From IMG/VR virus record IMGVR_UViG_2049941000_000702: DNA of 22,356 bases. One strand, written 5' to 3'. The DNA comes from an uncultured virus (IMG/VR IMGVR_UViG_2049941000_000702) (Duplodnaviria > Heunggongvirae > Uroviricota > Caudoviricetes). The stretch's first letter is position 1; each line of letters starts with the position of its first letter. A program made the translations under genes and the position numbers. This document shows positions 1 to 22,116 of the stretch, piece after piece. The notes under the pieces are model-generated. The model was given only the letters and a program-made list of their open reading frames with translations, was not told the origin of the DNA and made no database searches.

Positions 1-9
1 GCGCCCTGG

Positions 10-117
10 GAAGGCATGACAAGGCACGGTGGAGTGCACCGGTGTGGGGGAACGGTTTCCCGTTTCCTTGCTCCGTATGCATCCCGCCGCCTTAATGCGC
101 ATCTCAGGCTTTGAGAT
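10..117 (-). repeat. Copy 1 of a 108-nt direct repeat; candidate structured leader RNA
   Basis: Aligns without gaps to 2880-2987 with 5 mismatches (positions 39, 50, 67, 68, 70). The minus strand contains an ATCTCA-AAGCC-TGAGAT hairpin and an AACGG-GAAA-CCGTT tetraloop hairpin. Confidence 0.9.
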
Positions 118-277
118 TTATTTCACAGGAGATCAGGATATTGAGCTGATCGCTTGTCGTTGACTAAAGGATATCCTTTTGAATGGCGCTTGTCAGTCTC
201 AGCAGCTGGCACCATAAATGAGGGGCTTAACAATTTGAAAACTGCCATTTCCCAAGCGAACGTTGGCNNNNNNNNNN

Positions 278-484
278 TATGAGCTCATGAAGACGCATCC
301 GTTTTCTGAGCTTGAGAAGTTTTTCGGCATATTCCGGATCTGCAGGGTCAAGGCTGGCAAAATGAATCGCGTCGTCAAGTGTCTGGACTGCTTTGCTATC
401 TCCCTTTTTGAGCTCTTCGAGCTTGGCGTTGAAAAGGAACTTGATCAATTCTTTTTTCCTATTTGGGCTTATGGTATTCTGCAT
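278..484 (-). CDS. Hypothetical protein, 3' end runs into an N gap
   Basis: Strong RBS AAGGAGGAG upstream of ATG at 484 (MQNTISPNRKKELIKFLFNAK...). No recognisable motif. Confidence 0.55.
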
Positions 485-534
485 ATTCTCCTCCTTGATA
501 ACTCTGTTGACTGTAACGGGGCACATGATCGGCA

Positions 535-1014
535 TCAGAAGCCGCTGTTGCCCCAGGGCAGTTCAGGATCCTTGGTTTCCACCAGGCCCTTGGGATCGTC
601 GCAGTCAATAAAGTTCTCCACATTGTTGGCCTGGCGTTCTTCGCCGTTCTTACCCGTATATGAGCGCGGCTTTATGTGCGCTTTGCCCCTGGCGCCCACG
701 ACTTTAGTCCAGTCCATGACCACCTGCTCGCCGTGCTTCTTCATGCCTATGGAGCGGAAGAAGGATGCTATCCTCCATTCAAGAGTGCGGTAGAGTATAA
801 GGTCGACGCGCGCAGTAGCGATGCCCTTATCGTTATCTATGTCCAGGGACAGCGTAGCCTTATTGCAAGCGGGGATCTTGGCGGAGCCGGGAAAACGCGC
901 GCGCTCGAAATCCGTTACGGTAAAATAGTAATCGCCTTCGGGCAGGATGATGAATTCCCTGCCGTCATCCTGAATGGTATCGTTCCAATCCATTATCCTG
1001 TTATCTTGTGCCAT
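535..1014 (-). CDS. DUF669-like phage protein (putative ssDNA-binding partner of the Sak4-like ATPase)
   Basis: MDWNDTIQDDGREFIILPEGDYYFTVTDFERARFPGSAKIPACNKA..., acidic/aromatic tail ELPWGNSGF, RBS GGAGG, directly downstream of the AAA ATPase as in Firmicute prophage replication modules. Confidence 0.8.
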   Translation of the reverse strand: MAQDNRIMDWNDTIQDDGREFIILPEGDYYFTVTDFERARFPGSAKIPACNKATLSLDIDNDKGIATARVDLILYRTLEWRIASFFRSIGMKKHGEQVVMDWTKVVGARGKAHIKPRSYTGKNGEERQANNVENFIDCDDPKGLVETKDPELPWGNSGF

Positions 1015-1049
1015 ATGTGTGTTTTCCTCCTGTTACTGATCGTGTGAAT

Positions 1050-1959
1050 TTAGAATGGAGTATATTCGGGGTCATTGTGAATAGCGGTGACCACCCGCGA
1101 CCAGTTGTGCATGAGCCAGTCAGTGACGAACTTCTCGGGATAACGGTCTATGGGCGTATCGGCGGAGAAGTGGCCCTTCTGGGAAACCAGTCGCTTTAGG
1201 TCACTGTCGTCCACGCCCGCTTTCGTCATCCATTCCCTGAGCGTAGCCAGCGTTTCGGGAGTAACTGTCGCAAGCTGCTGGGTGTCTTTGGAAGCTGGTG
1301 CAGGCTGTGCGGGATCGGCGGTTGCGCGCTGGGTATCGGCTGCCGTCCGTGACTGTGTGCCCAGCGCTAACGCGACAGAAGTGTCTCCGAATATGGGTGC
1401 GNNNNNNNNNNGTCTTATAGTTGATGAACAGCAGCGCGTCGGGCCATTCCTTGAGCAGCGGGGCGCACTGCTTGGAGAGCTTAAGCCCCCATACGTCAAA
1501 ACCTCCGGTCTCATCGGGCAGTTCTACCCGGCGCTGCCTGGCATGAGCGGTGATGACCACGTTCTTCCCAGACAGTATCACGTCGTCGCAGGCGGCCAGC
1601 ATGCGGGAGAACTCTTCTGCCAGGAAGGTATAGCCCTTACCGTAACCGAATGACTCCAGTCCGGGCTGCTTGTACTTCTGGCAGATATGGTCTATGGCCA
1701 TCTGTTCCGCCCAGTCTGCGGTGTCGATCACCAGGGTACGGCACACCTCCAGAGTCTGCGCCACTTCGTTTATGAGCGAAATGAGCTCGCTCCAGTTCTG
1801 CGGCTTCTGCAGGCGGCGTACGTCCAGGTGCGCGGTGCCGCCTTCGGTGTCAATGAACAGCGGTTCGGGGGTCTGCGCGGCGAGGCTGGTCTTGCCTATA
1901 CCCTCGACTCCGNNNNNNNNNNGGGGACGCGCCACGCGTCCCGATGTGATATTCAGCAT
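1050..1959 (-). CDS. Phage ATP-binding protein, AAA_24/Sak4-like recombinase; split by N gaps at 1402-1411 and 1913-1922
   Basis: Walker A GVEGIGKT, LFIDTEGG, Walker B LVIDTADW, ESFGYGKGY. After the gap the C-terminus continues in the frame ending ...HNDPEYTPF. RBS AAGGAGG. Confidence 0.85.
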
Positions 1960-2111
1960 TTATTGCTTCCTCCTTTATTAAGGCTGCGGGAACGGTTCTC
2001 GATTACCGCGCAGCCTGGGATCTCCTGTCCGACGCTCAGGAGTTTTTTGACCTCTGGCTTGTACAACATGTGCTCATGCAGCCTGAACGCGTTCGTTCCC
2101 ATGGCTGGCAT
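1953..2111 (-). pseudogene. Siphovirus Gp157-like C-terminal remnant
   Basis: 52-aa frame absent from the ORF track: MPAMGTNAFRLHEHMLYKPEVKKLLSVGQEIPGCAVIENRSRSL... It resembles the Gp157 C-terminus and sits in the usual place upstream of the AAA gene. The N-terminal coiled coil is missing and no gap explains it. Confidence 0.55.
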
Positions 2112-2266
2112 TCGTACTCACTCAATAGTGGTTCCTCCTTTCTGAGGACCAGTGTTGTTTTGGTGTCCTCAATACTTACTGGACAAAACAGGCAATTTTG
2201 AACGAAATAATTAGAAAATAAGCTTGCCTGCCTAAGAATTGTCTTTACGGAGGTCAAATTGAGGTG

Positions 2267-2791
2267 TTAGATGAGGTCTTTCAGAGCTTCACGAAGAATG
2301 AAAAATACCTTATTTTTTCGGTAGTTGATGGTGGACTGGCGTTTCCCCATGTCGGCAGCGATCTCGCGCTCAGACTTGCCCTGCATGATGAGTTCGCAGA
2401 TGCGCCTGCTGTCTGGGTCGAGCTTTTCTAGCTCGTCGTAGAGTGCTTCAATCAACTCCTTATTCATAAAGATGTATTCTGGGGATGGTGTGACGTCTAC
2501 CAGCGTTTCGCCAATGGTCAGGTCTTCAGCATCTTTAACGGGTGCATCAAAGTCGAGCATGTTATCGGCTGCATGATAGGGGCAGAAATCACAATCGGAA
2601 TCACAGGCCCAGAGCATTGACTTTGGGCAGGTGCAACGGCAACTGCGCTGCATGCGCTTTTGCGTCATCCAGATATCCGGCATGATACGGTGATAGATGT
2701 GCTCAGGGATCGGCTCAAGGCGGACCTTGTAAGGGTCCCGAGCGTCGCGGACGGGATAGAAGAATTGTCTGTTACAGGAGCTAGTTTTCAT
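2267..2791 (-). CDS. Sigma-70 region 4-like transcriptional regulator of prophage/ICE type with a Cys-rich N-terminal motif
   Basis: RBS AAAGGA before ATG at 2791 (MKTSS...). Cys cluster CTCPKSMLWACDSDCDFCPY. C-terminal HTH LDPDSRRICELIMQGKSEREIAADMGKRQSTINYRK. Confidence 0.85.
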   Translation of the reverse strand: MKTSSCNRQFFYPVRDARDPYKVRLEPIPEHIYHRIMPDIWMTQKRMQRSCRCTCPKSMLWACDSDCDFCPYHAADNMLDFDAPVKDAEDLTIGETLVDVTPSPEYIFMNKELIEALYDELEKLDPDSRRICELIMQGKSEREIAADMGKRQSTINYRKNKVFFILREALKDLI

Positions 2792-2792
2792 G

Positions 2793-2870
2793 ATGTGTCC
2801 TTTCCGCCCGGGGCATATAGGCGGGGGACACATAAAGAGCCGGTCAGTGACGCACTGTCACCGGCCGGCT
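2793..2870 (-). promoter_or_regulatory. Terminator-like hairpin (2838-2870) followed by an RBS-sequestering hairpin (2793-2833) in the sigma-gene leader
   Basis: Minus strand: AGCCGG..GTGAC-agtgc-GTCAC..CCGGCT then CTTTAT; next ATGTGTCC-CCCGCC...GGCGG-AAA-GGACACAT, which pairs over the Shine-Dalgarno sequence. Confidence 0.55.
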
Positions 2871-2879
2871 TCACGTTGA

Positions 2880-2987
2880 GAAGGCATGACAAGGCACGGT
2901 GGAGTGCATCGGTGTGGGGAAACGGTTTCCCGTTTCAGTACTCCGTATGCATCCCGCCGCCTTAATGCGCATCTCAGGCTTTGAGAT
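2880..2987 (-). ncRNA. Copy 2 of the 108-nt repeat; candidate structured leader RNA of the sigma-like gene
   Basis: Ends about 90 nt upstream of the sigma-like ATG. Stems: ATCTCA/TGAGAT, AAGGC/GCCTT, TGCAT-a-CGG/CCG-ATGCA, GAAACGG-GAAA-CCGTTTC. Confidence 0.6.
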
Positions 2988-3008
2988 ATNNNNNNNNNNC
3001 AGGTTATT

Positions 3009-3369
3009 CTAAGATGATTCACCCTGCCTGATTCTTCCGGGACTGCATCCATAACGCCTTTTGAAAGCTTTGTAGAAGGTGTTGAAATTCGCATAACCGC
3101 AGTCCACGGCGATATTTTTCAGGGATCTGTCTGACTCGGTGATATATGTATACGCTCTTTGCATACGCGCTTCGTCCACATATTCCAGGAAGCTCTTTCC
3201 GACAAGCCGGTGCATCATCCGCTGCAGGGAAGTTGCTGATATCGAAAACTCGTCGATGATGCTCTGCACACATAATTCGGAAGACGACAAGTGCGAGTCT
3301 ATATAGTTCAGGATCTTTTTCTCGAAATCATCAATATTATGCTTATTATATGAGCGCGCGAAACGGATT
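3009..3369 (-). pseudogene. AraC-family regulator, DNA-binding domain only (5'-truncated)
   Basis: KILNYIDSHL...GKSFLEYVDEARMQRAYTYI...IAVDCGYANFNTFYKAFKRRYGCSPG is the AraC signature. An in-frame stop lies just upstream, with no ATG/RBS and no N gap. Confidence 0.7.
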
Positions 3370-3616
3370 CACGTTTATGAATGTACCCCCACTATACGCG
3401 CTACATGTCAAAAAGTATCGAAAAATAAGGCTTTCTGAGGTGTGATAGTCAAATTGTTTATTCCACTATCATCCGGAATTTCCAGCAATGAAGTAATTCG
3501 ATATAACCACCATTTGCTGGGGGCATCATATTCATATACTCGTACATGATGTAATTGGACATTTATGTGATGGTGCAAAGTTCTTTTTCTTAGCTAAGAT
3601 CTTAGGCTTTGAGTGA

Positions 3617-4180
3617 TTAATCGAGTTTGAGAGATTCTATTACAGCCATTGCATCCTTCAGTATCTGTCCTGCGTCTACGCCGACTTTATCCAGGTTTTC
3701 GGCTTTTATCAATTGACAGTCATCTATGCCGAAAAAATTATGACAAAGGGCTTTAACGTATCCGAATCCGTATTCTTCGTTGACGATATTGCCGCCGGCA
3801 GTAGTGACATAATACAGCTTTTTCGCCCGGCACATGCCTTTGGGAAGGTCGTCATCATAACAGAATGTGAGCCCTATCACGCACACATGCTCCAGGTATT
3901 GCTTTAGTATAGCAGGAAAGGACAAGTCCCAGTATGGGGCAGCTATCACAATGGTGTCAGCTTTGGCAAAGTCCTGAGCTAAATCAAACACTGGGGAAGA
4001 AAAGTCGCCTTTCGCGCTTTGCTCTATCCGCCATGAGATGAACGCGTCATCGGTTTTCGGTAGTGCGGTTTCATAAAGCCTGACTTCCTTTACACTGTCT
4101 GTAAAACGTTTGAGAAGGCAGTCTGCCAGCCTTTTTGTACGGGATACCTTCCTTGCACAGGCATTTATATACAGAATCAT
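3617..4180 (-). CDS. FMN-dependent NAD(P)H oxidoreductase (AzoR/AcpD-like, flavodoxin fold)
   Basis: ILYINACARKVSRT, ADTIVIAAPYWDLSFPAILKQYLE, YYVTTAGG. RBS GAGGAG. Confidence 0.85.
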   Translation of the reverse strand: MILYINACARKVSRTKRLADCLLKRFTDSVKEVRLYETALPKTDDAFISWRIEQSAKGDFSSPVFDLAQDFAKADTIVIAAPYWDLSFPAILKQYLEHVCVIGLTFCYDDDLPKGMCRAKKLYYVTTAGGNIVNEEYGFGYVKALCHNFFGIDDCQLIKAENLDKVGVDAGQILKDAMAVIESLKLD

Positions 4181-5767
4181 CTAAGAATTCTCCTCTNNNN
4201 NNNNNNNNNNNNNNNNNNNNNNNNNNNNNNNNNAGAGCGTGGGATAGCCAAAATGCGCTTGACTCTTGTTCCACTCATCTGCCAGACCATAGTTCCTAAG
4301 CAAATCCTGCCATGGCAGGAAGCCGTCGTATTTGTTTACCTCGATCTCAAGCAGTTGTTTAAGGTTCCCACCCGCGAACGGGTTGGATGGAAGCAGATTG
4401 TTGAACTCATACGGATCAGTATCCAGGTCGTACATAGCCAGAGGAGAGGCATCTTGGTTGGCAACATAAACGATATGGCCGTCGGTTATCGCTCTCCATG
4501 AAAATATCTCCCTTCGCCATGCCTGGTGCGCGGGTACGATATTGTACAGATATGCGATGTTGGACATGTCAGCATCCCGATCCAGAAAAGCACGGCTGAT
4601 GTCAGCACCGTCATATTTGTCATTGGATCTGATGCCCAGCAGACCGAGCAGGGAAGGGACCACGTCCACCAGACTGATAACCTGGTCCCGTCGACCGGAA
4701 GTGATCTTGCCAGGCCAATTGATCAAGAAGGGGACGCGTACACTCTCTTCAAAGTACCACTGCTTGTTTAAGCACCCATGGCTGCCTAGCATATTGCCAT
4801 GGTCGCTGGTATATACGATCACTGGTATTCTGCATATTCTCCTCCTTGATAANNNNNNNNNNNNNNNNNNNNNNNNNNNNNNNNNNNNNNNNNNNNNNNN
4901 NNNNNNNNNNNNNNNNNNNNNNNNNNNNNNNNNNNNNNNNNNNNTGCCCTGCTCCTTCAGCAGGTCAATGACCCTGCCCATCTGCTCGTCGAGCTTTTCT
5001 ATATGCCGATAATAGCCTGAAAGGTCGCTTTTTAGCTTATCGGTCGTCACTTCTTTGCGGTATTTAGCCCAGGGATCAGTGGTGCCGTATGCGTGGTGCC
5101 CCTTGGGAGGGACATATTTGTCCTCCGTTATTTCGGACACATTTCTTCGGAGACGGACATGCGGCGCCCTTGTTTCGCACAATGCGACGTCTTCCGGCGG
5201 CATCAGAAGGTAAGGATCATGAGGCGGAGAGTAACTGAGAAACATGGCAAACGGTTTTTTGCCAGATGCCTGCTCCTTAATGTATGATAGCGCTATGTCA
5301 GTAAAGCCAATGGGGCTGTATCCGTCTATTTCGTGCCGGACATTGTCATTATCAAAGTAATAGGAATGCATATAGTCGTGACAGCAGTTATTGGCTCTCC
5401 AGAACTCAAAACCCAACCGCTCATTCCTGTCTATATATCTGTCCCTGGGTACGCCGCCAAGATTCCACTTGCCTATGTAGGCGGTACGATAGCCTGCTTC
5501 TGATAATGAATTGCCTATGCCGCGGGTGACGGCTAAACTCATATCATTTGCTGCGGCACCGTGATTAAAAGCATGCAGACCCGTCAGCAATGTACCTCTG
5601 GCGGGGACGCAGACAGGACAGTTTGAATACGCATGCTCGAAAACAGCTCCGCCCGCTGCCAGCCGGTCCAGGCAGGGAGTACTGAGTTGGGTGTTGCCCA
5701 TAAACCCTGAATCGCAGAAACGGTGCTGGTCGCTCAGTATGAACACGAGATTGGGTTTTTTGCTCAT
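4181..5767 (-). CDS. Formylglycine-dependent (Cys-type, S1) sulfatase, with internal N gaps
   Basis: PNLVFILSDQH, CxPxR motif CVPARGTLLTG, PPHDPY, YTSDHG, FEESVRVPF, YDLDTDPYE. Confidence 0.92.
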   Translation of the reverse strand: MSKKPNLVFILSDQHRFCDSGFMGNTQLSTPCLDRLAAGGAVFEHAYSNCPVCVPARGTLLTGLHAFNHGAAANDMSLAVTRGIGNSLSEAGYRTAYIGKWNLGGVPRDRYIDRNERLGFEFWRANNCCHDYMHSYYFDNDNVRHEIDGYSPIGFTDIALSYIKEQASGKKPFAMFLSYSPPHDPYLLMPPEDVALCETRAPHVRLRRNVSEITEDKYVPPKGHHAYGTTDPWAKYRKEVTTDKLKSDLSGYYRHIEKLDEQMGRVIDLLKEQGXXXXXXXXXXXXXXXXXXXXXXXXXXXXXXXLSRRRICRIPVIVYTSDHGNMLGSHGCLNKQWYFEESVRVPFLINWPGKITSGRRDQVISLVDVVPSLLGLLGIRSNDKYDGADISRAFLDRDADMSNIAYLYNIVPAHQAWRREIFSWRAITDGHIVYVANQDASPLAMYDLDTDPYEFNNLLPSNPFAGGNLKQLLEIEVNKYDGFLPWQDLLRNYGLADEWNKSQAHFGYPTLXXXXXXXXXXXXXEENS

Positions 5768-5792
5768 TGGCTCACGCTCCTGTAGAATGGTT

Positions 5793-7579
5793 TCAGGTGA
5801 ACTGTGCGCTGTTTTTCTTGTATTGTATGGGCGTCACGCCGTAATAGCCTTTGAATGTTTTTATGAAATAAGAAGTGCTGCGGTAGCCGGTCTGCTCTGC
5901 CACGCTCCCGACGGAAACATCTGTGCCTAAGAGCAGCTCCTTTGCCTTTTGCATTCTCAGTAATATCACATATTCCCTGAAACCGTAACCTGTCATGGTT
6001 TTGAATATATTGGTGACCTGGTTGGCGGATATCTTGAAACAAGCCATGACGAGTTCTATGCTCATGTCAGCGTTGCAGCAGTTCTCCGCTACATAGGAGA
6101 CGATGCGGGTCGAGAGATTGTCATCGGCCGGAGAAGCGTTTCTCAGCGCGGGGAATCTGGCATACTGGTTTACGATGTTCATGACCGTTGACTTGAACTC
6201 GCCGCGTGTGAGAAGACCGCCGATATCCACCTGCAAGTAGCGGACCAAGTCAGGTTTATTATGTTTGGAGAAAGCCAACAGCGCCTCTATCATATTTGAA
6301 TACGCGCAGCGCTTGGTGAGCGAAGAAGTGGTGACGGTGTCGATCTCGTCCAGTACGCGATCCACCAGGTCGCTTAAGTCGTTTTCGCCATCATTACCCA
6401 GCACTGTAAGCAGGTNNNNNNNNNNGTCGGCCAGAGCCCTGCTGCTCGAGCTGTCCCAGAAGAACAGGTCGGCCTGATCTGACGCGAATATACTTATCCG
6501 GTCGGCATTCCTGTCCAGCAGGCTTGCCTCATGATAGGAACGGTTGATAACATCTATGGAATCCACGCATCCGCCTACACATACAGCACAGCTCAAACCG
6601 TTTTGGGCAGTTGTATCCAGCAGCAGTCGACTCAGCCGTTCACGGAGATTGGGGTGCGAGCCGTCAAAACCGACTATGCCGGCTATGGCTTCAATGTGGT
6701 ATATCTCAACTATCGACATTTCAATTTCAGCAGGCAGGGCGATGCTTTCCAGCAGATGCAGCGCCTTATCATTAGAAACGGAGACGTCGCCACTGTCCAA
6801 ACAGTACAGAATAAATGCAAAGTAATGGGCGCGTGAATCGTTCACGCCTATCATTCTCAAGGTATCCAGATTCTTATCGTCACTGAACCCCAGCAGAAGC
6901 AGGGTCAGAGCATTCTGACGGATCGTATTTCTTTGCTCATCTATCTTGGAGCTTTGCAGAAAGCGAACGTCAAGAATATCGTCCATTATGTCACTTAGTT
7001 CTTCAAACTCGTTTTTGCGTGAAGGCTGGACTTCATCACGTTTATAAGGAAGCAGGTCTTTGAGAATGCGTTTTAGGGGCTTGGCGTGCTTCTGGCTCAT
7101 AACTATGCCCAAAAGAACAGAAATGACTATGGCGGCAGCCATTCCGACATAGAACAGCNNNNNNNNNNNNNNNNNNNNNNNNNNNNNNNNNNNNNNNNNN
7201 NNNNNNNNNNNNNNNNNNNNNNNNNGCCAGCCGTGAATCCGTGGAGGCAGAGGAGGTATCGACACTTAAGTACAGCTGGTTTTCGGCGGAATAAACACTA
7301 TAGCGGTTGGGACTTGCGGAATGCGTGAGATCCGGGGCGTCTTCATCGGTCATTGAGAATGAGACTACGCAGTCCTTCTGCACAAGAGGAAGCACGTCAT
7401 TGATAATCGCGGCTTTGTTGATAAGCATGAAAAAGCCCCCGTACTCATTCGCGTTCCTTATAGTGAACGTCCTGAAGGGGAACATATACATAAGGGTATC
7501 TTCGCCGGATCGCCCCAGATATTTCTTGATCAGAATTGTGTCTGAAAGCAGGTCCTTTTTTGCTTGAGTTGCGGCATCC
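5793..7579 (-). CDS. Membrane-anchored AraC-family regulator; N-terminus lost in the gap at 7580-7982
   Basis: Putative extracytoplasmic part 7579-7226, transmembrane helix LFYVGMAAAIVISVLLGIVM, HAMP-like linker, C-terminal AraC HTH (LRMQKAKELL...TGYRSTSYFIKTFKGYYGVTPIQY). Confidence 0.85.
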
Positions 7580-7982
7580 NNNNNNNNNNNNNNNNNNNNN
7601 NNNNNNNNNNNNNNNNNNNNNNNNNNNNNNNNNNNNNNNNNNNNNNNNNNNNNNNNNNNNNNNNNNNNNNNNNNNNNNNNNNNNNNNNNNNNNNNNNNNN
7701 NNNNNNNNNNNNNNNNNNNNNNNNNNNNNNNNNNNNNNNNNNNNNNNNNNNNNNNNNNNNNNNNNNNNNNNNNNNNNNNNNNNNNNNNNNNNNNNNNNNN
7801 NNNNNNNNNNNNNNNNNNNNNNNNNNNNNNNNNNNNNNNNNNNNNNNNNNNNNNNNNNNNNNNNNNNNNNNNNNNNNNNNNNNNNNNNNNNNNNNNNNNN
7901 NNNNNNNNNNNNNNNNNNNNNNNNNNNNNNNNNNNNNNNNNNNNNNNNNNNNNNNNNNNNNNNNNNNNNNNNNNNNNNNNNN

Positions 7983-9527
7983 AAAGTATTCCTCGTACTC
8001 GTCGAGACCCATATCCTGAAGCGCCTGATAATATGCGTCAAAGTTGTCCATGCTTTCTTTGCCCGCTATGAACTTTGCTTCCATGCTGGCAATNNNNNNN
8101 NNNCTGGCAATGTAGTTGAGCAAGGGAGTCTGGAGCTCGATAATACGGGCATTGATGTCTTCTTCAAAGTAGATGTCTGGATACACGGGGGTGTAATATG
8201 GCACATCGTTTGCATCCATCTGTTCGCGCCAATATTTAGATGCACCCTTGGACTTGTTCTCTACTTCGAAACCAAGCACATAATCGGCTGCCTCGTTGGA
8301 GGCGCTTATGCCAGCGTGCTCATGAGTGCCGGTAGAGATGCTCTGACGGTACTGCACATCGGAGGTGACGCCGGGCAGGTAGTGGTATGCCTGTGCCTTT
8401 TTCTCAGCGTCATAATACCAGCCTTCGCACATGCCCAGCAGGTCCTCGCTGCCCTCCATGGGACCGTCCCAGGTGTACAGGGCGCCTTCCAGGGTGAAAT
8501 GCCAGTCGGCGAATTTCATAGCCGCTTCCAGATCTTTGCAGTCTCTGCTTATGGAGAACTGGCCGTGGGTGATGGCTGCGGACTCGGGCCAATGGAACTC
8601 ATCGCAGAACTCGCTGGTCATGGGCTTGATGGCTACCCAGTCGTCGTAAGCCGTAGTGGGCATTACGTGAGGCGCGCTCTGGACGTGTACGCCAACGCGA
8701 TCCTCTGTCGTATCGGACTGCATCTGGGTCAGGTTCAGAGTGAAGAGGTCTTGGTTGAGCAGGCCTTCCTCATAAAACTCGTGCATGGTTGTGAGCAGGG
8801 CCTTATAAAAATCGTAGTTGTTGGCGGGGATTATGGCTTCGCCGTTTAATACGGCAGGCTNNNNNNNNNNGTCAAGCGGGATCTCATCGTCGGGATCGCC
8901 GTTGCCGTTAGCGTCCTGCTCTTTGAACGCTTTGAGCACTTCGTGGAAGTCTTCCAGGTTATCAGGATTGGTGAGGCCCAGATTTTCCATCCAGCGGTTG
9001 TTGATCCAGGCACGTAAAGTGGTATAGTTCTGGTTATGATTGTAACCGGTAAATCCGGAGAAGGTATATATGTTGCCGTCGATGTAGTACCAAGTGGCGG
9101 CCACGCCGGGTTCATACTCCATGAAGGCCTTAATGTTGGGGGCATATTCATCGATAAGGTCATTCAAGGGGATCAGCTGCTTCTCTTTGTAGCCGTACTG
9201 CACGATCTCGCTCTGTGTGAGCTCGCAGTTGTAGAAAATGTCAGGAAGGGAGTCGGAAGCGAACAGGAGGTTGAGTTTTTCGTCACGGTCGTTCTCCTCG
9301 ATATCGGTCACGGTGATATCGATGTGCATGGCTTCCTTGACCCACTTATAGAACCATCTGTCCTGGGAAGGCACGTCTTCTCCCGCGAAGCGTATGGTGA
9401 CTATGTCAAGCTTGTGGATATCGTCGAAGAACGGGTATTCACTGGACCATGGCACATCTTCCAACGCGGCCATGGCGGGAGTCGCGCACAGCATCAACGC
9501 GAGCAAGAGGATAAGTAATCTCTTCAT
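7983..9527 (-). CDS. Carbohydrate ABC transporter extracellular solute-binding protein (family 1); stop codon in gap
   Basis: Signal peptide MKRLLILLLALMLCATPAMA, LLFASDSLPDIF, WINNRWMENLGL, FKEQDANGNGDPDDEIPL. Confidence 0.9.
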
Positions 9528-9595
9528 TATTCGATCGCTCCTTTATATTATTATACTACTCATGAGGTCGCAGGTGAAGTAAGTTTCCTCCTTTC

Positions 9596-10501
9596 TTATC
9601 CTTTTACCGCGCCCATCATGATGCCTTTCACAAAATATTTCTGTACGAATACGTACGCTACCATTACGGGGAAGCTCGCTATAAAGATAAGGGAGTATTT
9701 CATGGTCTCAGCCAGCATCGCACGCTGCACCGCGTTTTCGATTTCTTCGTCAGTGGCTGACAGACCCAGCGTCTGCAGGGCATTCTGGCTGGAAGACAGT
9801 ATGTTCTTTAATATCAGCTGAAGGGGATACATGGCGTCTTTTGACAGGTAGATCATGGCGGTAAAATAACCGTTCCAGTGTCTTACCGCGTAGAACAGGC
9901 CCATGACCGCGATTATCGCTCCAGAAAGGGGAAGCGCGATCTTGGCGAAGATGCCTATGTCTGAGCAGCCGTCGATCTCTGCCGCTTCATAGATATCGTT
10001 GGGTATGGAAGTCTGATAGAAGTTGCGCGTGACGACGAGATTGAATATGTCAACACCGTTTAGAAAGATCAACGCGTACCAGCTGTTTACAAGGCCGACC
10101 TTTTTTACTACTATGTATGTGGGAATGAGACCGCCGCTGAAGTACAGGGTAAACATGAACACCCATATGAACACACGCGAGCAGGGCAGCTCCTTTTTGG
10201 CCAGCGCATAGGCAGCGGGAATGGTCAGGATCAGGTTGAACAAAGTTCCGAATACGGTATAGATGATCGTATTTTTATAGCCTGTCCAGATGCTCTTGCT
10301 CCTGATGACGTTTTCATATGCCTTCATTGTAATGCCTTTGGGCAGCAGGAATGTCTGACCGTTGGCAGTCGCAATAGGGTCTGATATGGATGCTACGATC
10401 GTGAAATAAAGCGGATAAACGATTATCAGCAGCGTAACTGCCAGAAGTATGTACACCACTAAGTCGAAAGCTTCCAGAGGACGGCGTTTATGCTTCAACA
10501 T
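9596..10501 (-). CDS. Carbohydrate ABC transporter permease (MalG/LplC type)
   Basis: FSGGLIPTY, EAA motif IYEAAEIDGC, WNGYF, C-terminal FVQKYFVKGIMMGAVKG. RBS GGAGG before ATG at 10501. Confidence 0.93.
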   Translation of the reverse strand: MLKHKRRPLEAFDLVVYILLAVTLLIIVYPLYFTIVASISDPIATANGQTFLLPKGITMKAYENVIRSKSIWTGYKNTIIYTVFGTLFNLILTIPAAYALAKKELPCSRVFIWVFMFTLYFSGGLIPTYIVVKKVGLVNSWYALIFLNGVDIFNLVVTRNFYQTSIPNDIYEAAEIDGCSDIGIFAKIALPLSGAIIAVMGLFYAVRHWNGYFTAMIYLSKDAMYPLQLILKNILSSSQNALQTLGLSATDEEIENAVQRAMLAETMKYSLIFIASFPVMVAYVFVQKYFVKGIMMGAVKG

Positions 10502-10512
10502 TTTGACACCTC

Positions 10513-11436
10513 CTATATGGACGTTTCCGAATAGCGCCGGGCAAGCATGTTGACGCATATAAGGAGGATAAGGTTGGTCACATTGTTTACAAGTCCTATG
10601 GCAGTGGTGTAGCTAAACTGAGCTCCAGCAAGGCCGACCCGGTATACGTAAGTGGAGATGACATCGGAGTAATCCATATTGAGGTCGTTCTGCAGCAGCA
10701 GCACTTTCTGAAAACCAACAGTAAGCAGCTGACCTACTTTAAGGATCAGCTGGGTGATGGCTATCGGCTTCAGACACTGGAAATTAATGTGGTACATTAT
10801 GCGGGTGCGGCCGGCGCCGTCTATCTTCGCGGCTTCGATCAGGTTGGAGTCCACAGCGCTGAGTGCAGCAATGTATATGACTGAAGCGTAGCCGGACTCC
10901 TGCCAGATGCCCGACCAAACGAATATGTGCTTGAACAACGGGCCCTCTGACAGGAACGCTATACGTTCCTTGCCCATCAACACCCTAAGCGCGTTGAAAA
11001 TGCCGGCGGAACGGTCCATAAAAAGGATCACCATTCCGCACATTGCGACCATGGAAATAAAATGGGGGAGGAATACCACCATCTGCACGGTTTTTTTGAA
11101 CGCCACGTTCCTGACTTCATTAAGCAGCAGCGCGATTATAATTGGGAAGGGAAAGCCAGCTACCAGGGTGTAGCCGCTGAGTACCAGGGTATTCTTGACT
11201 GTCTGCCAGAAAAAGGGATAGTTGATGAAACGTTTGAAATACACAAGGCCTAGATAGTGGCTTTTCCAGAAACCAAGTGTAGGGCTGTAGTCCTTGAAGG
11301 CGATTTGGAGGCCTATCATGGGCCAGTAATTGAATATGAGGATATAGACCAAGGCGGGCAGCAGCAAAAGCAGCAACTGCCAGTGCCTGAATCGTTTTCT
11401 AAGCCTCGCGCTGATACTGTACTTTGTTGCCTGCAT
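10513..11436 (-). CDS. Carbohydrate ABC transporter permease (LplB/YteP type)
   Basis: GLQIAFKDY, LPHFISMV, EAA motif LIEAAKIDGAGR, DVISTYVYRVGL. Confidence 0.93.
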   Translation of the reverse strand: MQATKYSISARLRKRFRHWQLLLLLLPALVYILIFNYWPMIGLQIAFKDYSPTLGFWKSHYLGLVYFKRFINYPFFWQTVKNTLVLSGYTLVAGFPFPIIIALLLNEVRNVAFKKTVQMVVFLPHFISMVAMCGMVILFMDRSAGIFNALRVLMGKERIAFLSEGPLFKHIFVWSGIWQESGYASVIYIAALSAVDSNLIEAAKIDGAGRTRIMYHINFQCLKPIAITQLILKVGQLLTVGFQKVLLLQNDLNMDYSDVISTYVYRVGLAGAQFSYTTAIGLVNNVTNLILLICVNMLARRYSETSI

Positions 11437-13749: not shown

Positions 13750-14925
13750 GAGGCAGGCGTTGAATACGGCCCTGTAGCCGTAGCGCGCCCGTATATCGTC
13801 TATGGCGTCGTCGAGGCTGCGCTGTTTATCCCTTCGCGCGTAATCGTTGAATAAATCAGTCTGCACCGCGCAGGAGGCGTTTGCAAGCTTGATGCCGCGT
13901 ATCGTGAGCGCGCGTATGGGCTTGTACCACATGTACCGCTCATGGAAAAGAGCGTAGCCCGCGCAGGCGATCTCGTAAGGGCTCTGTGTAGGGTAGTGGA
14001 GCGGCATCTGCCACATGTACCAGCCAAGGTCCTTGTCTCTTACGGAGACCTCCACGCCCCGGGCCATGAAGCCGTGTTTGCGTAATCTGTGGCCCACGTC
14101 CTGCGCCAGTTCCAGCAGCACCAGCCAGGCTTCATAATTGGTGTCCAGGTCGCGCACGCATGTGGTGCCGTGGCCTATGGTCTTTATGGGACACTCGTAG
14201 TTCTCCGGCATGACGGGGGAGTAGTCCGTGCCGTTGGCGAAGTGCCACAGCATCGCGCCGTTCTTGCCAAGCTTGCGGAAGATATAGTTTATGTCCGCTC
14301 TGGCCAGGTCGCCTATGGTGCGTATGTTCCACTCCAGCAGTTTCCTGGTGGTCGCCGGGCCTACGTACAGCAGGTCGGATACGGGCAGTTTCCACGCCTT
14401 TTCGCGGAAGTTCTCTTTGCTTACTACTGTGACGGCATCCGGCTTTTTCATGTCGCTGCCCAGCTTGGCGAAGATCTTGCTGAATGAGACGCCTATGCTT
14501 ACGGTCAGTCCGGTTTCTTCCTTGACGGTTTCGCGTATTTCCTCGGCGATAGCCAGTCCGTCGTTTTCCACGTTCCTGCAGCCGTCCAGCAGTATCCAGT
14601 TCTCGTCCATGCCGAAGGGCTCGATATCGTTGGCGTATCTTTTATATATTGAGCGCACTATGCTGCTGTAATGCAGGTAAAGGTCATAGTGCGGGTCTAC
14701 TATTATCAGGTCAGGACACGCCTGCTTCGCCTGCCAGTTGGCCATGCCCGTCTTCACACCTGAACGCTTGGCGGGATAGCTGGCGGTGAGCACGATGCCG
14801 TGACGGTTCTCTGTGGAACCGCATACCGCTATCTTCTTTCCCTTAAGTTCAGGATGCTCGTTCATCTCCACGCTGGCGTAGTAACAGTTCAGGTCACTGT
14901 GAAGTATGACAGCCTCGTTCCTCAT
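13750..14925 (-). CDS. dinB: Y-family DNA polymerase IV / UmuC-like; last residues in gap
   Basis: ILHSDLNCYYASVE, ASYPAKRSGVKTGM, IEPFGMDE, SIGVSFSKIFAKLGSDMKKPD, IDDIRARYG. Alternative ATG at 14940. Confidence 0.93.
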
Positions 14926-14944
14926 TTTGTTCCAGCCCATGCAG

Positions 14945-15047
14945 AATATTTTTGATAACTTCACNNNNNNNNNNACAGCACGAATTGTAGCAGATGTGAT
15001 GTGATTAGTCAAGAGGAAATGTGAAGTTACGGCAAATATTATTTCAC
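14945..15047. promoter_or_regulatory. Inverted repeat pair flanking the dinB promoter; candidate XRE operators
   Basis: AATATTTttgaTAACTTCAC (14945-14964) versus GTGAAGTTAcggcAAATATT (15021-15040), 16/20 complementary. Also GTGAA-N17-TTCAC at 15021-15047. Confidence 0.55.
14984..15012 (-). promoter_or_regulatory. Sigma-A promoter for dinB
   Basis: TTGACT (15012-15007), 17-bp spacer, TACAAT (14989-14984), with extended -10 TGn. Confidence 0.75.
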
Positions 15048-15065
15048 ACGGACGGAGGAAAGGGA

Positions 15066-15807
15066 ATGGGTAGTCTTTCAGAGAAACTGTACAGGGCCCG
15101 TGTAGTCGCGCATTTGAACCAGGAGGAGCTCGGAGCACAGGTCGGCGTGTCCAGGCGATCCATAATCGCATATGAGGGCGGTCAGTCGATCCCGCGCAAG
15201 GCCGTGCTGCGCAGGCTGGCCCAGACGCTGGGAGTTACCGAGTATTACCTGACGCACGACGACTGCGACGATCCCGACGAAGGGCAGGCACGGGAGAAGA
15301 ACTTGAACATGGTGCGTGAGCGGTTCGGTGCCAAAGGCGCGAAGGAAGCGGCTGCGTTACTGGAAAAGGGGAGCGTCTTCTTCGCGGGCGGGGATATTTC
15401 CCAGGAAGACAAGGACGCGCTGTTCGACGCGCTCATGANNNNNNNNNNNNNNNNNNNNNNNNNNNNNNNNNNNNNNNNNNNNNNNNNNNNNNNNNNNNNN
15501 NNNNNNNNNNNNNNNNNNNNNNNNNNNNNNNNNNNNNNNNNNNNNNNNNNNNNNNNNNNNNNNNNNNNNNNNNNNNNNNNNNNNNNNNNNNNNNNNNNNN
15601 NNNNNNNNNNNNNNNNNNNNNNNNNNNNNNNNNNNNNNNNNNNNNNNNNNNNNNNNNNNNNNNNNNNNNNNNNNNNNNNNNNNNNNNNNNNNNNNNNNNN
15701 NNNNNNNNNNNNNNNNNNNNNNNNNNNNNNNNNNNNNGACAGCGAAGAATGAAGCGAGGGCAAAATTCACTCCCAAGAGCGTCAAGGCCGCGGTGAAGAA
15801 TAAATAG
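15066..15807 (+). CDS. XRE/ImmR-like HTH repressor; the internal N gap is probably over-estimated
   Basis: LNQEELGAQVGVSRRSIIAYEGGQSIP HTH; FFAGGDISQEDKDALFDALM. After the gap, TAKNEARAKFTPKSVKAAVKNK* fits the C-terminus of this family. Confidence 0.85.
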
Positions 15808-15844
15808 TAAGTTCATATCTGGTCGATTGGAGACGGATGCAGAA

Positions 15845-16358
15845 ATGATTAACTACGATTTGATCACAGACGAGGTCCGGCGCCTCAGGCGGGAATATGA
15901 GGAGACAGATCCCGACCGCTTATGCCGGCTCATGGGGATCACGGTCATTGACTATGACACCGCGGTAGTGCCTGCGAACTTTAAAGGGCTGACCCTGATC
16001 CAGTCACGCAGGCCTGTGATACTACTGAATTCCAAGCTGAGCGAGAACCTCCGCCAGATCGTACTGGCGCATGAGCTGGGGCACGCTGTGCTGCATGGGG
16101 AACTGGCGGACCTGCGCGCGTTCACCGATTTTGACATGTTCGGCATGAACGACCAGTGTGAGCACGAGGCGAACGTTTTCGCTGCCGAGCTGCTACTGGA
16201 CGACGACGTGGTGCTTGATGCGCTGAACGACGATATGACTTTCTTCGGCGCCGCGAAGACACTGTGCGTTCCTCCGGAGCTACTGGACTTCAAATTCCGG
16301 GTGCTAAAGCATCAGGGGTATAAAATCAGGCCCATAATGATAGCGAACAGCAGGTTCC
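15845..16358 (+). CDS. ImmA/IrrE family metallo-endopeptidase (anti-repressor); stop probably in gap
   Basis: IVLAHELGHAVLH (HExxH) and EHEANVFAAELL, immediately downstream of the XRE gene. Confidence 0.92.
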
Positions 16359-16477
16359 NNNNNNNNNNNNNNNNNNNNNNNNNNNNNNNNNNNNNNNNNN
16401 NNNNNNNNNNNNNNNNNNNNNNNNNNNNNNNNNNNNNNNNNNNNNNNNNNNNNNNNNNNNNNNNNNNNNNNNNNNNN

Positions 16478-17035
16478 GATGACGATTTACAGAGTGTTGT
16501 CAAAAATGCATTCGAGACGGAAGAAGCTGCCAGGAAAAAAGCTGATGAGGAGCGCATGACCTTGGAGGAGGAACGAACTGCCACTGCGGCGACACCTGTA
16601 AAACCAAGAGTAATGGTTGATCCTTTGTATACGGGAACAAAGTCTGTAATGATTTACTTCGAGCCCGTTAATCTGAAGCAGTGGAACATGTTTGAAAAGG
16701 TGAGTGGAATTGGTCATGTTGAGCCGTTCCTTGCAACACAGAGCATGGAATACGGTGATCGTGTTCTCCTTCATGTCGGTCAACAGGATAAGCGCTACGA
16801 AAGCGGTATATATGCTTACGGCACTGTGATCAAAGGCCCATTCGTTTTGAGAGGACACCCTGATGATTACTGCAACTACAAAAACACAGTTATGATCCGA
16901 TTCGATAGGATCAGCTACACATCACCGCTGATTACCCACGATGCGTGTACCGAGTTTATACGTCAATTCAGGACTGTGCATAGGATCGATCCGGAATACT
17001 ATGATATGATTGATAATCTCTTGCATATCCGATGA
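16478..17035 (+). CDS. Protein with C-terminal EVE/PUA-like domain; start in gap
   Basis: Charged helical linker followed by W...SMEYGDRVLLHVG...SGIYAYGTVIKGP...VMIRFD, a pattern resembling EVE domains. Confidence 0.55.
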   Translation, partial: DDDLQSVVKNAFETEEAARKKADEERMTLEEERTATAATPVKPRVMVDPLYTGTKSVMIYFEPVNLKQWNMFEKVSGIGHVEPFLATQSMEYGDRVLLHVGQQDKRYESGIYAYGTVIKGPFVLRGHPDDYCNYKNTVMIRFDRISYTSPLITHDACTEFIRQFRTVHRIDPEYYDMIDNLLHIR

Positions 17036-19593: not shown

Positions 19594-19691
19594 GTAATCA
19601 AGAAGTGCTCAGCAAACCCGTCTGTATACTAAATTTGCCTTGCTTTGAACAAAGAAGGCATTTTTGCATAGGAATAGAAGAGGACACATTT

Positions 19692-20842
19692 ATGTCGAAG
19701 GATTGGAATTACAGATTGCCAACTGGTACTATATTAATGCAGCGGTATCGCATTGAGGCAGTTTTGGGGGAAGGCGGTTTTGGAATAACATACAAGGCGA
19801 CGGATACCCTTCTGGAAATAAAGGTTGCCATAAAAGAATACTATCCTCGTGGTTGTGCAATCAGATACGCTAATTCGAGTCTGAATGTGACCATTTCGGA
19901 TACTGAAAGCTCGGATTTATATGTGCAGTGGAAAGAGCGTTTTCTTCNNNNNNNNNNGGAAGCGCGAATCCTGGCACAGTGCAGCAGCATACCAAGCATT
20001 GTTTCCGCATTTAATTTTTTTGAGGAAAACGATACTGCATATATTGTCATGGAGTTCCTTGACGGCATACCGCTAAAGAAGCTAGTCAAAGAAAAGGGCG
20101 TCATGGATGGGCGCGAGCTGGCCAGTTTGATGCTGCCGCTGATCAGGTCGCTGCATAGGGTCCACAAACGCAGCCTGCTGCATAGAGATATTTCTCCCGA
20201 AAACATAATGCTGATGCCTGACAGTACGCTGAAGCTTTATGATTTCGGAGCGGCTCGAATGTTTGATCAGGAGCAAAAACGCAGCATGTCTGTCGTGCTC
20301 AAGCATGGTTATGCTCCTCCGGAGCAATACCGGATCCATGGCGAGCAAGGGCCGTGGACAGATATTTATGCACTTTGTGCCACGATGTATTTTTGTATCA
20401 CCAGTATGGCACCGGAGAGCTCGATAGACAGAATGCTTGATAACGGTAAGCTGGCAAGGCCGTCTGATTGCGGGCGAATCGCTCCTGTTGATAAAGAGCT
20501 GGAAGACATTATAATTCGAGGACTTAGTATAAGGTATGAGGATAGGTATCAATCAGCGGAGCTCTTAGCTACAGCTATTGAGCACTATCTTAATCAAGAA
20601 AAAGGGGAGGAAGAAACTCCAAAAAATGATGATAATGACAGAACGATAGTGATTCACAAAATCCCTGATAAGAGAGACTATATTGAAACAGAAGTGGACC
20701 AAAATAAGAAACGAAGTTCTTGCATAGTTAATGATAGTACCACCGAAGTTATCAGCAAAACCGAGGTGGCAGATAAGCGAAATATACAGAATAAAGAAGG
20801 GCCATCTTCTACAAATGATGATAATTCAGGAGATAAAGTGGA
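19692..20842 (+). CDS. Hanks-type Ser/Thr protein kinase (kinase domain plus polar linker; continues into gap)
   Basis: LGEGGFG, VAIKE, HRDISPEN, DFG, GYAPPEQ, TDIYAL. RBS GAGG before ATG at 19692. Confidence 0.93.
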
Positions 20843-21559
20843 NNNNNNNNNNNNNNNNNNNNNNNNNNNNNNNNNNNNNNNNNNNNNNNNNNNNNNNNNN
20901 NNNNNNNNNNNNNNNNNNNNNNNNNNNNNNNNNNNNNNNNNNNNNNNNNNNNNNNNNNNNNNNNNNNNNNNNNNNNNNNNNNNNNNNNNNNNNNNNNNNN
21001 NNNNNNNNNNNNNNNNNNNNNNNNNNNNNNNNNNNNNNNNNNNNNNNNNNNNNNNNNNNNNNNNNNNNNNNNNNNNNNNNNNNNNNNNNNNNNNNNNNNN
21101 NNNNNNNNNNNNNNNNNNNNNNNNNNNNNNNNNNNNNNNNNNNNNNNNNNNNNNNNNNNNNNNNNNNNNNNNNNNNNNNNNNNNNNNNNNNNNNNNNNNN
21201 NNNNNNNNNNNNNNNNNNNNNNNNNNNNNNNNNNNNNNNNNNNNNNNNNNNNNNNNNNNNNNNNNNNNNNNNNNNNNNNNNNNNNNNNNNNNNNNNNNNN
21301 NNNNNNNNNNNNNNNNNNNNNNNNNNNNNNNNNNNNNNNNNNNNNNNNNNNNNNNNNNNNNNNNNNNNNNNNNNNNNNNNNNNNNNNNNNNNNNNNNNNN
21401 NNNNNNNNNNNNNNNNNNNNNNNNNNNNNNNNNNNNNNNNNNNNNNNNNNNNNNNNNNNNNNNNNNNNNNNNNNNNNNNNNNNNNNNNNNNNNNNNNNNN
21501 NNNNNNNNNNNNNNNNNNNNNNNNNNNNNNNNNNNNNNNNNNNNNNNNNNNNNNNNNNC

Positions 21560-22116
21560 AAGATGCTTTGCAAACAACAACGGTGAATAACAGCAAGAGT
21601 CATGGTAATAGCAGTTGGTATCCAAGTAATAACGCAAATACATTGGACAAAGCTGATTACCCACGATGCGTGTANNNNNNNNNNNNNNNNNNNNNNNNNN
21701 NNNNNNNNNNNNNNNNNNNNNNNNNNNNNNNNNNNNNNNNNNNNNNNNNNNNNNNNNNNNNNNNNNNNNNNNNNNNNNNNNNNNNNNNNNNNNNNNNNNN
21801 NNNNNNNNNNNNNNNNNNNNNNNNNNNNNNNNNNNNNNNNNNNNNNNNNNNNNNNNNNNNNNNNNNNNNNNNNNNNNNNNNNNNNTAATACAGAACATTT
21901 TGCAAACACGGCATATGCGCATAAAAAACTGGGGCAAATATATAAAAATAATAGATTCATTAATGCCCAGGATTGTGGTTGGTGGCTTCGTTCACCAGGA
22001 GAGAACTACACGTCGGCAACACAGGTTTATAAAAACATAGCGATATCTAAGGGGGTTAACTGGTACTCTTACATACGGCCTGCAATATGGATAAAGATAG
22101 AAAAGAGTCTAGATTN
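21560..22116 (+). CDS. DUF6273-like domain fragments, probably the kinase C-terminus
   Basis: DALQTTTVNNSKSHGNSSW...NTLDK (21560-21651) and TAYA...GWWLRSPG...A..V...IRPAIWI (21886-22116). Same strand as the kinase, separated from it only by N gaps. Confidence 0.6.

Follow-up and report, generated by a model that had tools for sequence, protein, structure and literature searches.

A conserved leader RNA with a palindromic loop in front of sigma-like genes of prophage-like elements: a candidate self-pairing switch

What is the structured non-coding sequence that stands twice near the start of a 22,356-nt stretch of DNA from an uncultured Caudoviricetes virus (IMG/VR record IMGVR_UViG_2049941000_000702; hereafter the window)? 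A repeat comparison within the window shows that its copies at 10-117 and 2880-2987 agree at 103 of 108 positions, with the five differences listed in a preliminary description, and that they are part of the window's longest direct repeat, 111 nt. Comparison with homologues indicates that the element very probably belongs to a structured cis-leader in front of sigma-like genes. Judged by its sequences, this leader RNA family is real and well conserved, and the palindrome in its 5' hairpin loop is unusual.

Architecture and conservation of the leader

The homologues indicate that the element is the 5' half of a family of leaders of about 200 nt. The size of 108 nt first given to it proved too small, as the unit extends to a terminator-like hairpin and to a hairpin over the Shine-Dalgarno (SD) sequence. 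Copy 2 contains the following parts, for which OFF denotes the fold that would close the ribosome site and ON the predicted fold that would free it.

2791..2987, minus strand: full leader RNA of copy 2, with the conserved AUCUC at one end and the start codon (2791) at the other (R1 100 bits at 2873-2991; alignment A4)
2959..2979, minus strand: 5' hairpin, GCCU (2976-2979) with AGGC (2959-2962), closing the palindromic loop; 96.3% of cells paired
2965..2972, minus strand: self-complementary loop AUGCGCAU; palindrome of at least 6 nt in 79/80 rows (background windows: 58/1040)
2948..2961, minus strand: core 5' strand, whose partner is the core 3' strand (OFF) or, by prediction, the anti-SD (ON); core helix 99.0% paired
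2919..2936, minus strand: variable apical hairpin, with a GAAA loop in window copy 2 only; 5/5 pairs change on both sides
2897..2910, minus strand: core 3' strand, predicted antiterminator for the 5' arm and loop of the terminator; 87-90% paired
2877..2887, minus strand: distal 3' strand, pairing with the palindrome region in the OFF fold; about 84% paired; window fold
2832..2870, minus strand: terminator-like hairpin (2838-2870) and short U tract (2832-2837); 91.7% paired, double changes in 6 of 8 pairs
2794..2832, minus strand: SD-sequestering hairpin, anti-SD at 2820-2832 and SD arm at 2794-2808; 80.1% paired

Pattern scans returned 76, 71 and 92 overlapping viral stretches and 72 genome stretches, mostly from Clostridia, while the metagenome scan listed 119 stretches out of an estimated 470 or so. 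Among the matches listed are at least 239 distinct family sequences, with 82 representatives under 90% identity. A looser pattern was unspecific (about 1600 estimated stretches) and gained three loci; distant homologues were reached through the SD hairpin alone. The carriers are records of Oscillospiraceae, Lachnospiraceae, Acetobacterium, Syntrophomonas and Megasphaera, together with a Candidatus Heliusvirales phage, the only phage record matched, in which a 73% identical copy reaches the start codon. Acetobacterium carbinolicum DSM 2925 and Anaerotignum neopropionicum DSM 3847 are carriers available in culture. Plasmid records gave no match to the element. The counts leave out five pattern matches without the 5' module (loci L504, L509, L537, L553 and L556; R1 at most 24 bits) and two rows with fewer than 30 nt upstream. 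Window copy 1, which is cut off, is excluded from the counts of strand pairing and fold state and from the family alignment A4; L428, whose leader ends after the core, is also excluded from A4, which holds 80 rows. The leaders of L428, L481 and L530 are cut after the core or the terminator and continue into other sequence, which suggests deletion or recombination at the leader.

The core of this structure is its most constant part. Its two strands are almost invariant and contain a C.A mismatch as well as fixed bulges; the core spans 58-71 nt across the family, and within its stem A-U and G-C exchange (52/27 in the 80 rows). The OFF fold as a whole is 89.8% paired, with many G-U pairs, and 16 of its 33 pairs are doubly changed against 10.1 in shuffled alignments (1/500), the shuffles ignoring relatedness. 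This is the covariation among homologues that the preliminary description had proposed to look for. The placement is consistent: 65 of the 68 representatives with enough DNA have a same-strand open reading frame (ORF) of at least 110 aa that begins 150-200 nt behind the anchor. Together they uphold the proposal of a structured, cis-placed leader of sigma-like genes in elements resembling prophages or integrative and conjugative elements. The OFF fold also dominates predictions of minimum free energy, in which the core forms in 69/81, the terminator in 66/81, and the SD is paired in 66/77; RNAalifold on alignment A3 recovered the core stem alone.

Some details of the fold first described need amendment. 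The long stem does form on the minus strand as described (z against shuffles -2.4 and -4.7 for the two copies), but the plus strand folds better (-4.2 and -5.0). The minus strand is assigned because of gene orientation and G-U patterns, folding energy alone being insufficient. The GAAA tetraloop caps its hairpin, but the sequence of that hairpin varies in the family. The AUCUCA/UGAGAU hairpin is 94% pairable, with one doubly changed pair, but it is broken in CUAGUG/CAAGUG variants, and GCCU/AGGC is the better-supported 5' helix. Together, AUCUC/GAGAU and GCCU/AGGC could form a pseudoknot.

The preliminary description could not assign the element to a riboswitch class, and Rfam has no family for it. 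The covariance models of Rfam 15 gave no family match to the element in the window (E ≤ 1) or at the homologue loci scanned, where the only matches, at other positions, are to the DUF2800 and gut-2 RNAs. The accessible text of the literature searched does not describe the motif, the Weinberg 2017 supplement and the Fremin 2021/2023 alignments lying outside that search, and no paper found pairs DUF2800 with an RNA motif. One catalogued candidate, HMP2_2216 (Fremin & Bhatt 2021, PMC8040213), agrees with the element in length, hosts and neighbours and may be its core. In the available part of that source it is 69 nt long and occurs in Negativicutes and Clostridia, among them the L434 host Pseudoflavonifractor sp. 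AF19-9AC. Its neighbours there are DUF2800, Bro-N, SNF2 and type I restriction-modification (RM) genes, and the table gives no function, palindrome or switch.

The loop closed by GCCU/AGGC remains palindromic through six hexamers while its letters change. One palindrome, UGCGCA, is shared by 65 of the 80 representatives. Fourteen of the 15 departing rows hold another perfect hexamer (UGGCCA in nine, GUCGAC in four, GUGCAC in one), and distant homologues carry UUGCAA, UGUACA, UGGCCA or UGCGCA, two having GUAC only (L626, L613 and L647 by eye). On a tree built without the loop columns UGGCCA shows six changes, and switches between UGCGCA and UGGCCA fall at least four times on well-supported branches; module swapping could explain some of them. 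The hairpin itself shifts from GCCU/AGGC to GUCC/GGAC, with C-G replaced by U-A in 13 and U-A by C-G in 14 of 80 rows. It is formed in the predicted early fold of 80/81, and predictions for the nascent 5' fragment leave the loop exposed in 70/81. Pairing of the palindrome with a second partner in cis was rejected because the hexamer is almost never repeated nearby (1/70 upstream, 4/80 downstream).

The dimerization initiation site (DIS) of HIV-1 is the closest parallel for such a loop. As set out in the available portion of PMC7357161, it too holds a 6-nt palindrome in a hairpin loop that the fold hides or exposes, and one homologue here shares its GUGCAC. As in the DIS, a self-complementary hexamer appears to be kept in a hairpin loop across sequence variants. 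The DIS serves genome packaging, in contrast to a bacterial gene-control leader, and the loop size and flanks vary; no homology is implied.

Alternative pairing and the trigger of a candidate switch

The same strands that build the OFF fold have second partners. Core 5' strand and anti-SD pair with a predicted -23.9 kcal/mol, against -13.3 for shuffled sequences and -17.3 for the opposite strand (z < -2 in 65/66). Their helix is 97.3% paired, and 13 or 14 of its 14 pairs form in 65/70. A change of G to A in the core 5' strand is met by U in 8/12 cases, and a G stands opposite U in 1/58. The preference for the cognate partner is weak (41/66), because both parts are conserved. If the core is prohibited from forming and the SD kept open, the pairing with the anti-SD arises in 78/81 and the antiterminator in 61/81, and the nested ON fold lies a median of 8 kcal/mol above OFF. 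By prediction and conservation, SD sequestration with an anti-anti-SD strand appears to be present, and in these models the ON fold is less well supported than the OFF fold.

These alternatives suggest, tentatively, a two-state attenuator that is OFF by default and would be flipped ON by RNA-RNA self-pairing, as in IsrK. In the predicted OFF state the core strands pair with each other, and the terminator-like and SD hairpins form. In the predicted ON state the core 3' strand would pair with the 5' arm of the terminator, and the ribosome site would become free as the anti-SD binds to the core 5' strand. Leaky termination would yield a short RNA of about 155 nt and a translationally closed long transcript, and the short RNA may accumulate upon induction or with more copies of the element. 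Loop-loop pairing would then hold the 5' hairpin, weaken the long OFF stem and favour ON, and different palindromes would mark groups without cross-talk. We infer both the trigger and the direction of switching by analogy.

Phages offer precedents for such a leader. C4 antisense RNAs are phage-leader RNAs that are complementary to other parts of their own leader and control early genes. IsrK of Salmonella Gifsy-1 shares with the leader studied here a prophage location, a terminator and two alternative folds, and its short isoform acts in trans on its own read-through mRNA and opens the ribosome-binding site (available text of PMC4825925). It differs in host phylum and in sequence, and the leader here is predicted to make first contact at the palindromic loop. 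The same text presents the CI RNA of P4 as a phage-leader RNA that is complementary to its own leader and controls early genes. CI is processed and represses; the present leader has no Rfam match.

Several results weigh against an attenuator opened by self-pairing. The conservation of the core is partly built into the search patterns, as is the UGCGCA majority into two of them; the 15 rows that depart from it are the informative ones. In the L445, L613 and L647 lineages the palindrome is broken or only 4 nt long, and the GUCC/GGAC compensation lies mostly in one clade. Like loops pair best (self beats cross pairing in 6/6 representatives), in predicted dimer energies that are extended-duplex values and are partly shown by any hairpin. 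The antiterminator signal is modest and similarly strong on the opposite strand: core 3' strand against terminator arm and loop gives -19.3 for cognate, -17.2 for non-cognate and -13.6 for shuffled pairs, and the cognate beats the mean non-cognate in 61/81 (control 36/79). In the ON structure six pairs are doubly changed against 5.3 in shuffles (216/500), which is not above chance, while doubly changed cells number 49 against 17.8. The U tract is weak (median 4/8), and a terminator scan did not call the terminator-like hairpin of the window; both suggest that translational control may matter more than termination. Finally, equilibrium cofolding, which cannot model kissing loops or kinetics, leaves the SD paired in 57/65 monomers, in 60/65 with the short RNA and in 51/65 with a 44-nt 5' fragment.

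That last result would also suit the same attenuator flipped by an RNA-binding protein of the element or the host, with the palindrome as a dimeric binding site or incidental. Near-invariant core strands, fixed bulges and a C.A mismatch are typical of a protein site, and the ON fold costs only some 8 kcal/mol. Such a trigger is unlikely all the same: it fails to explain why six loop sequences are all self-complementary, the leader-adjacent proteins have a median mutual identity of 23% (57 proteins), and the upstream genes vary.

Slightly less probable again is the reverse direction, in which the short RNA of a resident element would lock nascent leaders OFF and confer immunity. P4 CI RNA causes termination when it pairs with the seqA and seqC segments of the leader it comes from (PMC4825925, in its available text); palindrome groups would equal immunity groups, and the SD remains paired in most cofolds with the short RNA. 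The monomer, however, is already predicted to be OFF, with core and terminator formed in most leaders, which leaves little for a repressor RNA to do, and one palindrome in 65/80 representatives is presumably less diverse than immunity usually is.

A riboswitch for a metabolite or ion, with the 108-nt part as aptamer and possibly the AUCUC/GAGAU and GCCU/AGGC pseudoknot, is very improbable. It could draw on the high conservation, the 5' position, the platform of terminator and SD hairpins, and two helices, 94-96% pairable, from which an H-type pseudoknot could arise. Yet the genes downstream are phage regulators and replication genes, not metabolic ones, conservation falls mainly on letters that have two partners for pairing, Rfam gives no riboswitch match, and the palindrome is left unexplained. 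A shade less probable still is a DNA-level element, be it a repressor operator, a cruciform or a recombination site, with the RNA folds as by-products. The palindromic core, the plus strand's better fold in the window, the position at a module boundary beside variable cargo and the tandem replacement scar in L446 would fit it; the abundance of G-U pairs on one strand alone, the variable and often asymmetric distance from the palindrome's centre to the flanking arms and the strand bias of the anti-SD complementarity would not. The least probable reading is a self-cleaving ribozyme or processing signal releasing the operon's 5' end, which matches the pseudoknot-compatible 5' module, the A-rich linker and hairpin just upstream in 39/70 and the absence of a conserved promoter by eye, but finds no Rfam ribozyme match and is followed directly by an expression platform with alternative pairings.

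Gene neighbourhood and the apparent duplication

In prophage-like elements of gut Clostridia the leader appears to stand at the front of a replication cluster of phage type, usually by way of a sigma70-region-4-like gene. Two genes of the block under copy 2 are listed here.

2267..2791, minus strand: sigma70-region-4-like helix-turn-helix (HTH) gene, 174 aa, first gene under the leader; Pfam PF08281 (Sigma70_r4_2), E 4.7e-5, below cut-off
1414..1959, minus strand: AAA_24 phage-type nucleotide-binding (NTP) gene of the same block, interrupted by N gaps; PF13479, E 2.6e-42

The same gene order with AAA_24 recurs in L453. Across the family, 26 of 40 first-gene proteins match Sigma70_r4 families (E ≤ 0.01, mostly below cut-off), three other HTH families and two other families, and nine have no match. 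A census of 54 hand-picked neighbouring proteins found, downstream in 13 loci scanned, DUF2800 in eight, an SNF2 helicase and a Pam3 gp33-like gene in three, and a BRO antirepressor and AAA_24 in one each. Upstream in 16 loci it found ABC-3C in five, DinB in five, a type I RM methylase in three and nothing recognised in three.

The upstream slot holds variable defence cargo (ABC-3C, type I RM methylases) in L391, L395, L398, L405, L422, L424, L434 and L450. In the window, 13756-17035 carries genes for a DinB-like polymerase, an Xre HTH protein and an ImmA/IrrE peptidase, a damage-inducible module that also lies upstream of the element in L037 and L453. Positions 3009-11436 carry AraC regulators and a flavodoxin-like gene; inspection by eye adds a sulfatase-like gene and a sugar ABC transporter. 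This metabolic cargo has the regulator module on one side and, on the other, the sequence that truly lies upstream of copy 1. An ORF at 19605-21590, broken by N gaps, has Ser/Thr protein kinase-like motifs by eye. A promoter scan gave nothing above chance, and by eye no conserved promoter was seen in the 60 upstream stretches, of 79, that were inspected. A small unconserved hairpin with an A-rich linker lies 40-70 nt upstream of the anchor in 39 of 70 representatives, against 10% expected, and is possibly a processing or upstream termination signal.

Two other RNA motifs occur close to this leader. The DUF2800 RNA (RF02960) occupies the same slot upstream of DUF2800-type clusters, and takes the place of the leader in three of four scanned loci of the closest homologues of the window's own sigma-like protein, whose 36 closest homologue loci lack the element. 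Both RNAs have a strand that mimics the SD, an anti-SD and a recognition-like loop. In contrast, the DUF2800 RNA shows no sequence or model match to the leader in either direction, and the complement of its loop lies in an upstream hairpin and not in the loop itself. Among 12 distinct DUF2800 leaders this complementarity exists in two covarying versions (L001, L002, L033 and related), and the pattern suggests that the orphan DUF2800 motif is also a switch triggered by RNA-RNA pairing. The gut-2 RNA (RF02990), whose own loops hold CAAUUG-type palindromes, lies about 60-100 nt upstream of the element in four loci (L453 3493-3540; L098 3113-3160; L039 2029-2076; L654 1791-1839). Unlike the leader it is a separate 48-nt motif, with no overlap with the element. 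In L453 a hairpin follows gut-2, and loose contig ends behind window positions 2989 and 123 are similar to it.

Are the two copies of the window a local duplication, as first proposed? The window, whose probable source is a bovine gut metagenome, is a scaffold with 29 N gaps, and contigs of four runs were aligned to its first 3400 positions; the evidence is contigs, not reads. The two deeper runs, X2 and X3, come from the probable source sample, the same for both, and are not independent. Three RNA runs contain only 5-12% of the sequence words and carry no weight as evidence. Three features matter here.

3..121, minus strand: 5' half of the leader, copy 1, truncated at the edge of the window; R1 95.9 bits; its upstream flank joins window 3000 in X2 and X3
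246..277, no strand: left scaffold junction (N gap 268-277); joint from 245 to 3000, loose ends at 245 and 278
2990..2999, no strand: right scaffold junction (N gap), directly next to copy 2 on its 5' side; multiple loose ends behind 2989

In each of X2 and X3 a single contig (11,289 nt and 2,790 nt) links 245 to 3000, omitting 246-2999 and bridging the joint with 236 other letters. The block 278-2989 runs into other sequence at both ends, with 3,440 unrelated nt before 278 in X3; several different loose ends lie behind 2989, others at 245 and 278, and both junctions fall on 10-N gaps (268-277 and 2990-2999). A 54-nt contig over the 5' half of the element has a depth of 199.6, against about 25 for the flanks. 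Both copies exist, and copy 2 is the leader of the sigma-like gene, as had been thought: a gap-free contig of run X1 covers 1932-2989 without differences. Because the contigs link 245 to 3000 directly and the block 278-2989 has other flanks, the 2.87-kb local duplication is most likely a scaffolding artefact. The side with the AraC genes and cargo most likely leads to copy 1, the sigma-gene block having been dropped into the gap through the repeat. The mis-assembly raised as a possibility at the outset would apply to the close spacing of the copies, but not to their existence; the equal depth of both blocks allows one organism with two elements.

Elsewhere a close pair occurs in one of 72 genome loci, L446, a metagenome-assembled genome with elements at 3968-4091 and 4542-4664, 574 nt apart. 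Their palindromes differ, and behind the first element stands a sigma-like gene that breaks off after about 23 codons; from its sequence the pair looks like the scar of a module replacement. More generally, RNA repeats present at many loci can yield false tandem duplications in scaffolded metagenomes.

A possible sensor of element copies

A more speculative form of the self-pairing attenuator is that the leader counts its own copies, palindromic homodimerisation flipping an attenuator of the early operon and the interchangeable palindromes (UGCGCA, UGGCCA, GUCGAC, GUGCAC, UUGCAA and UGUACA) serving as orthogonal channels. This is doubtful as the models stand. Natural RNA homodimers with a regulatory role are rare, according to the available portion of PMC7357161. 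If the leader did act in this way, the DUF2800 RNA would be its hetero-pairing counterpart in that slot. The family would equip widespread prophage-like elements of the gut and other anaerobes with a compact RNA control at the front of their replication cluster. A switch thrown by its own copies would directly sense the copy number of the element, and would be a protein-free sensor of copy number or kin for decisions on induction or superinfection.

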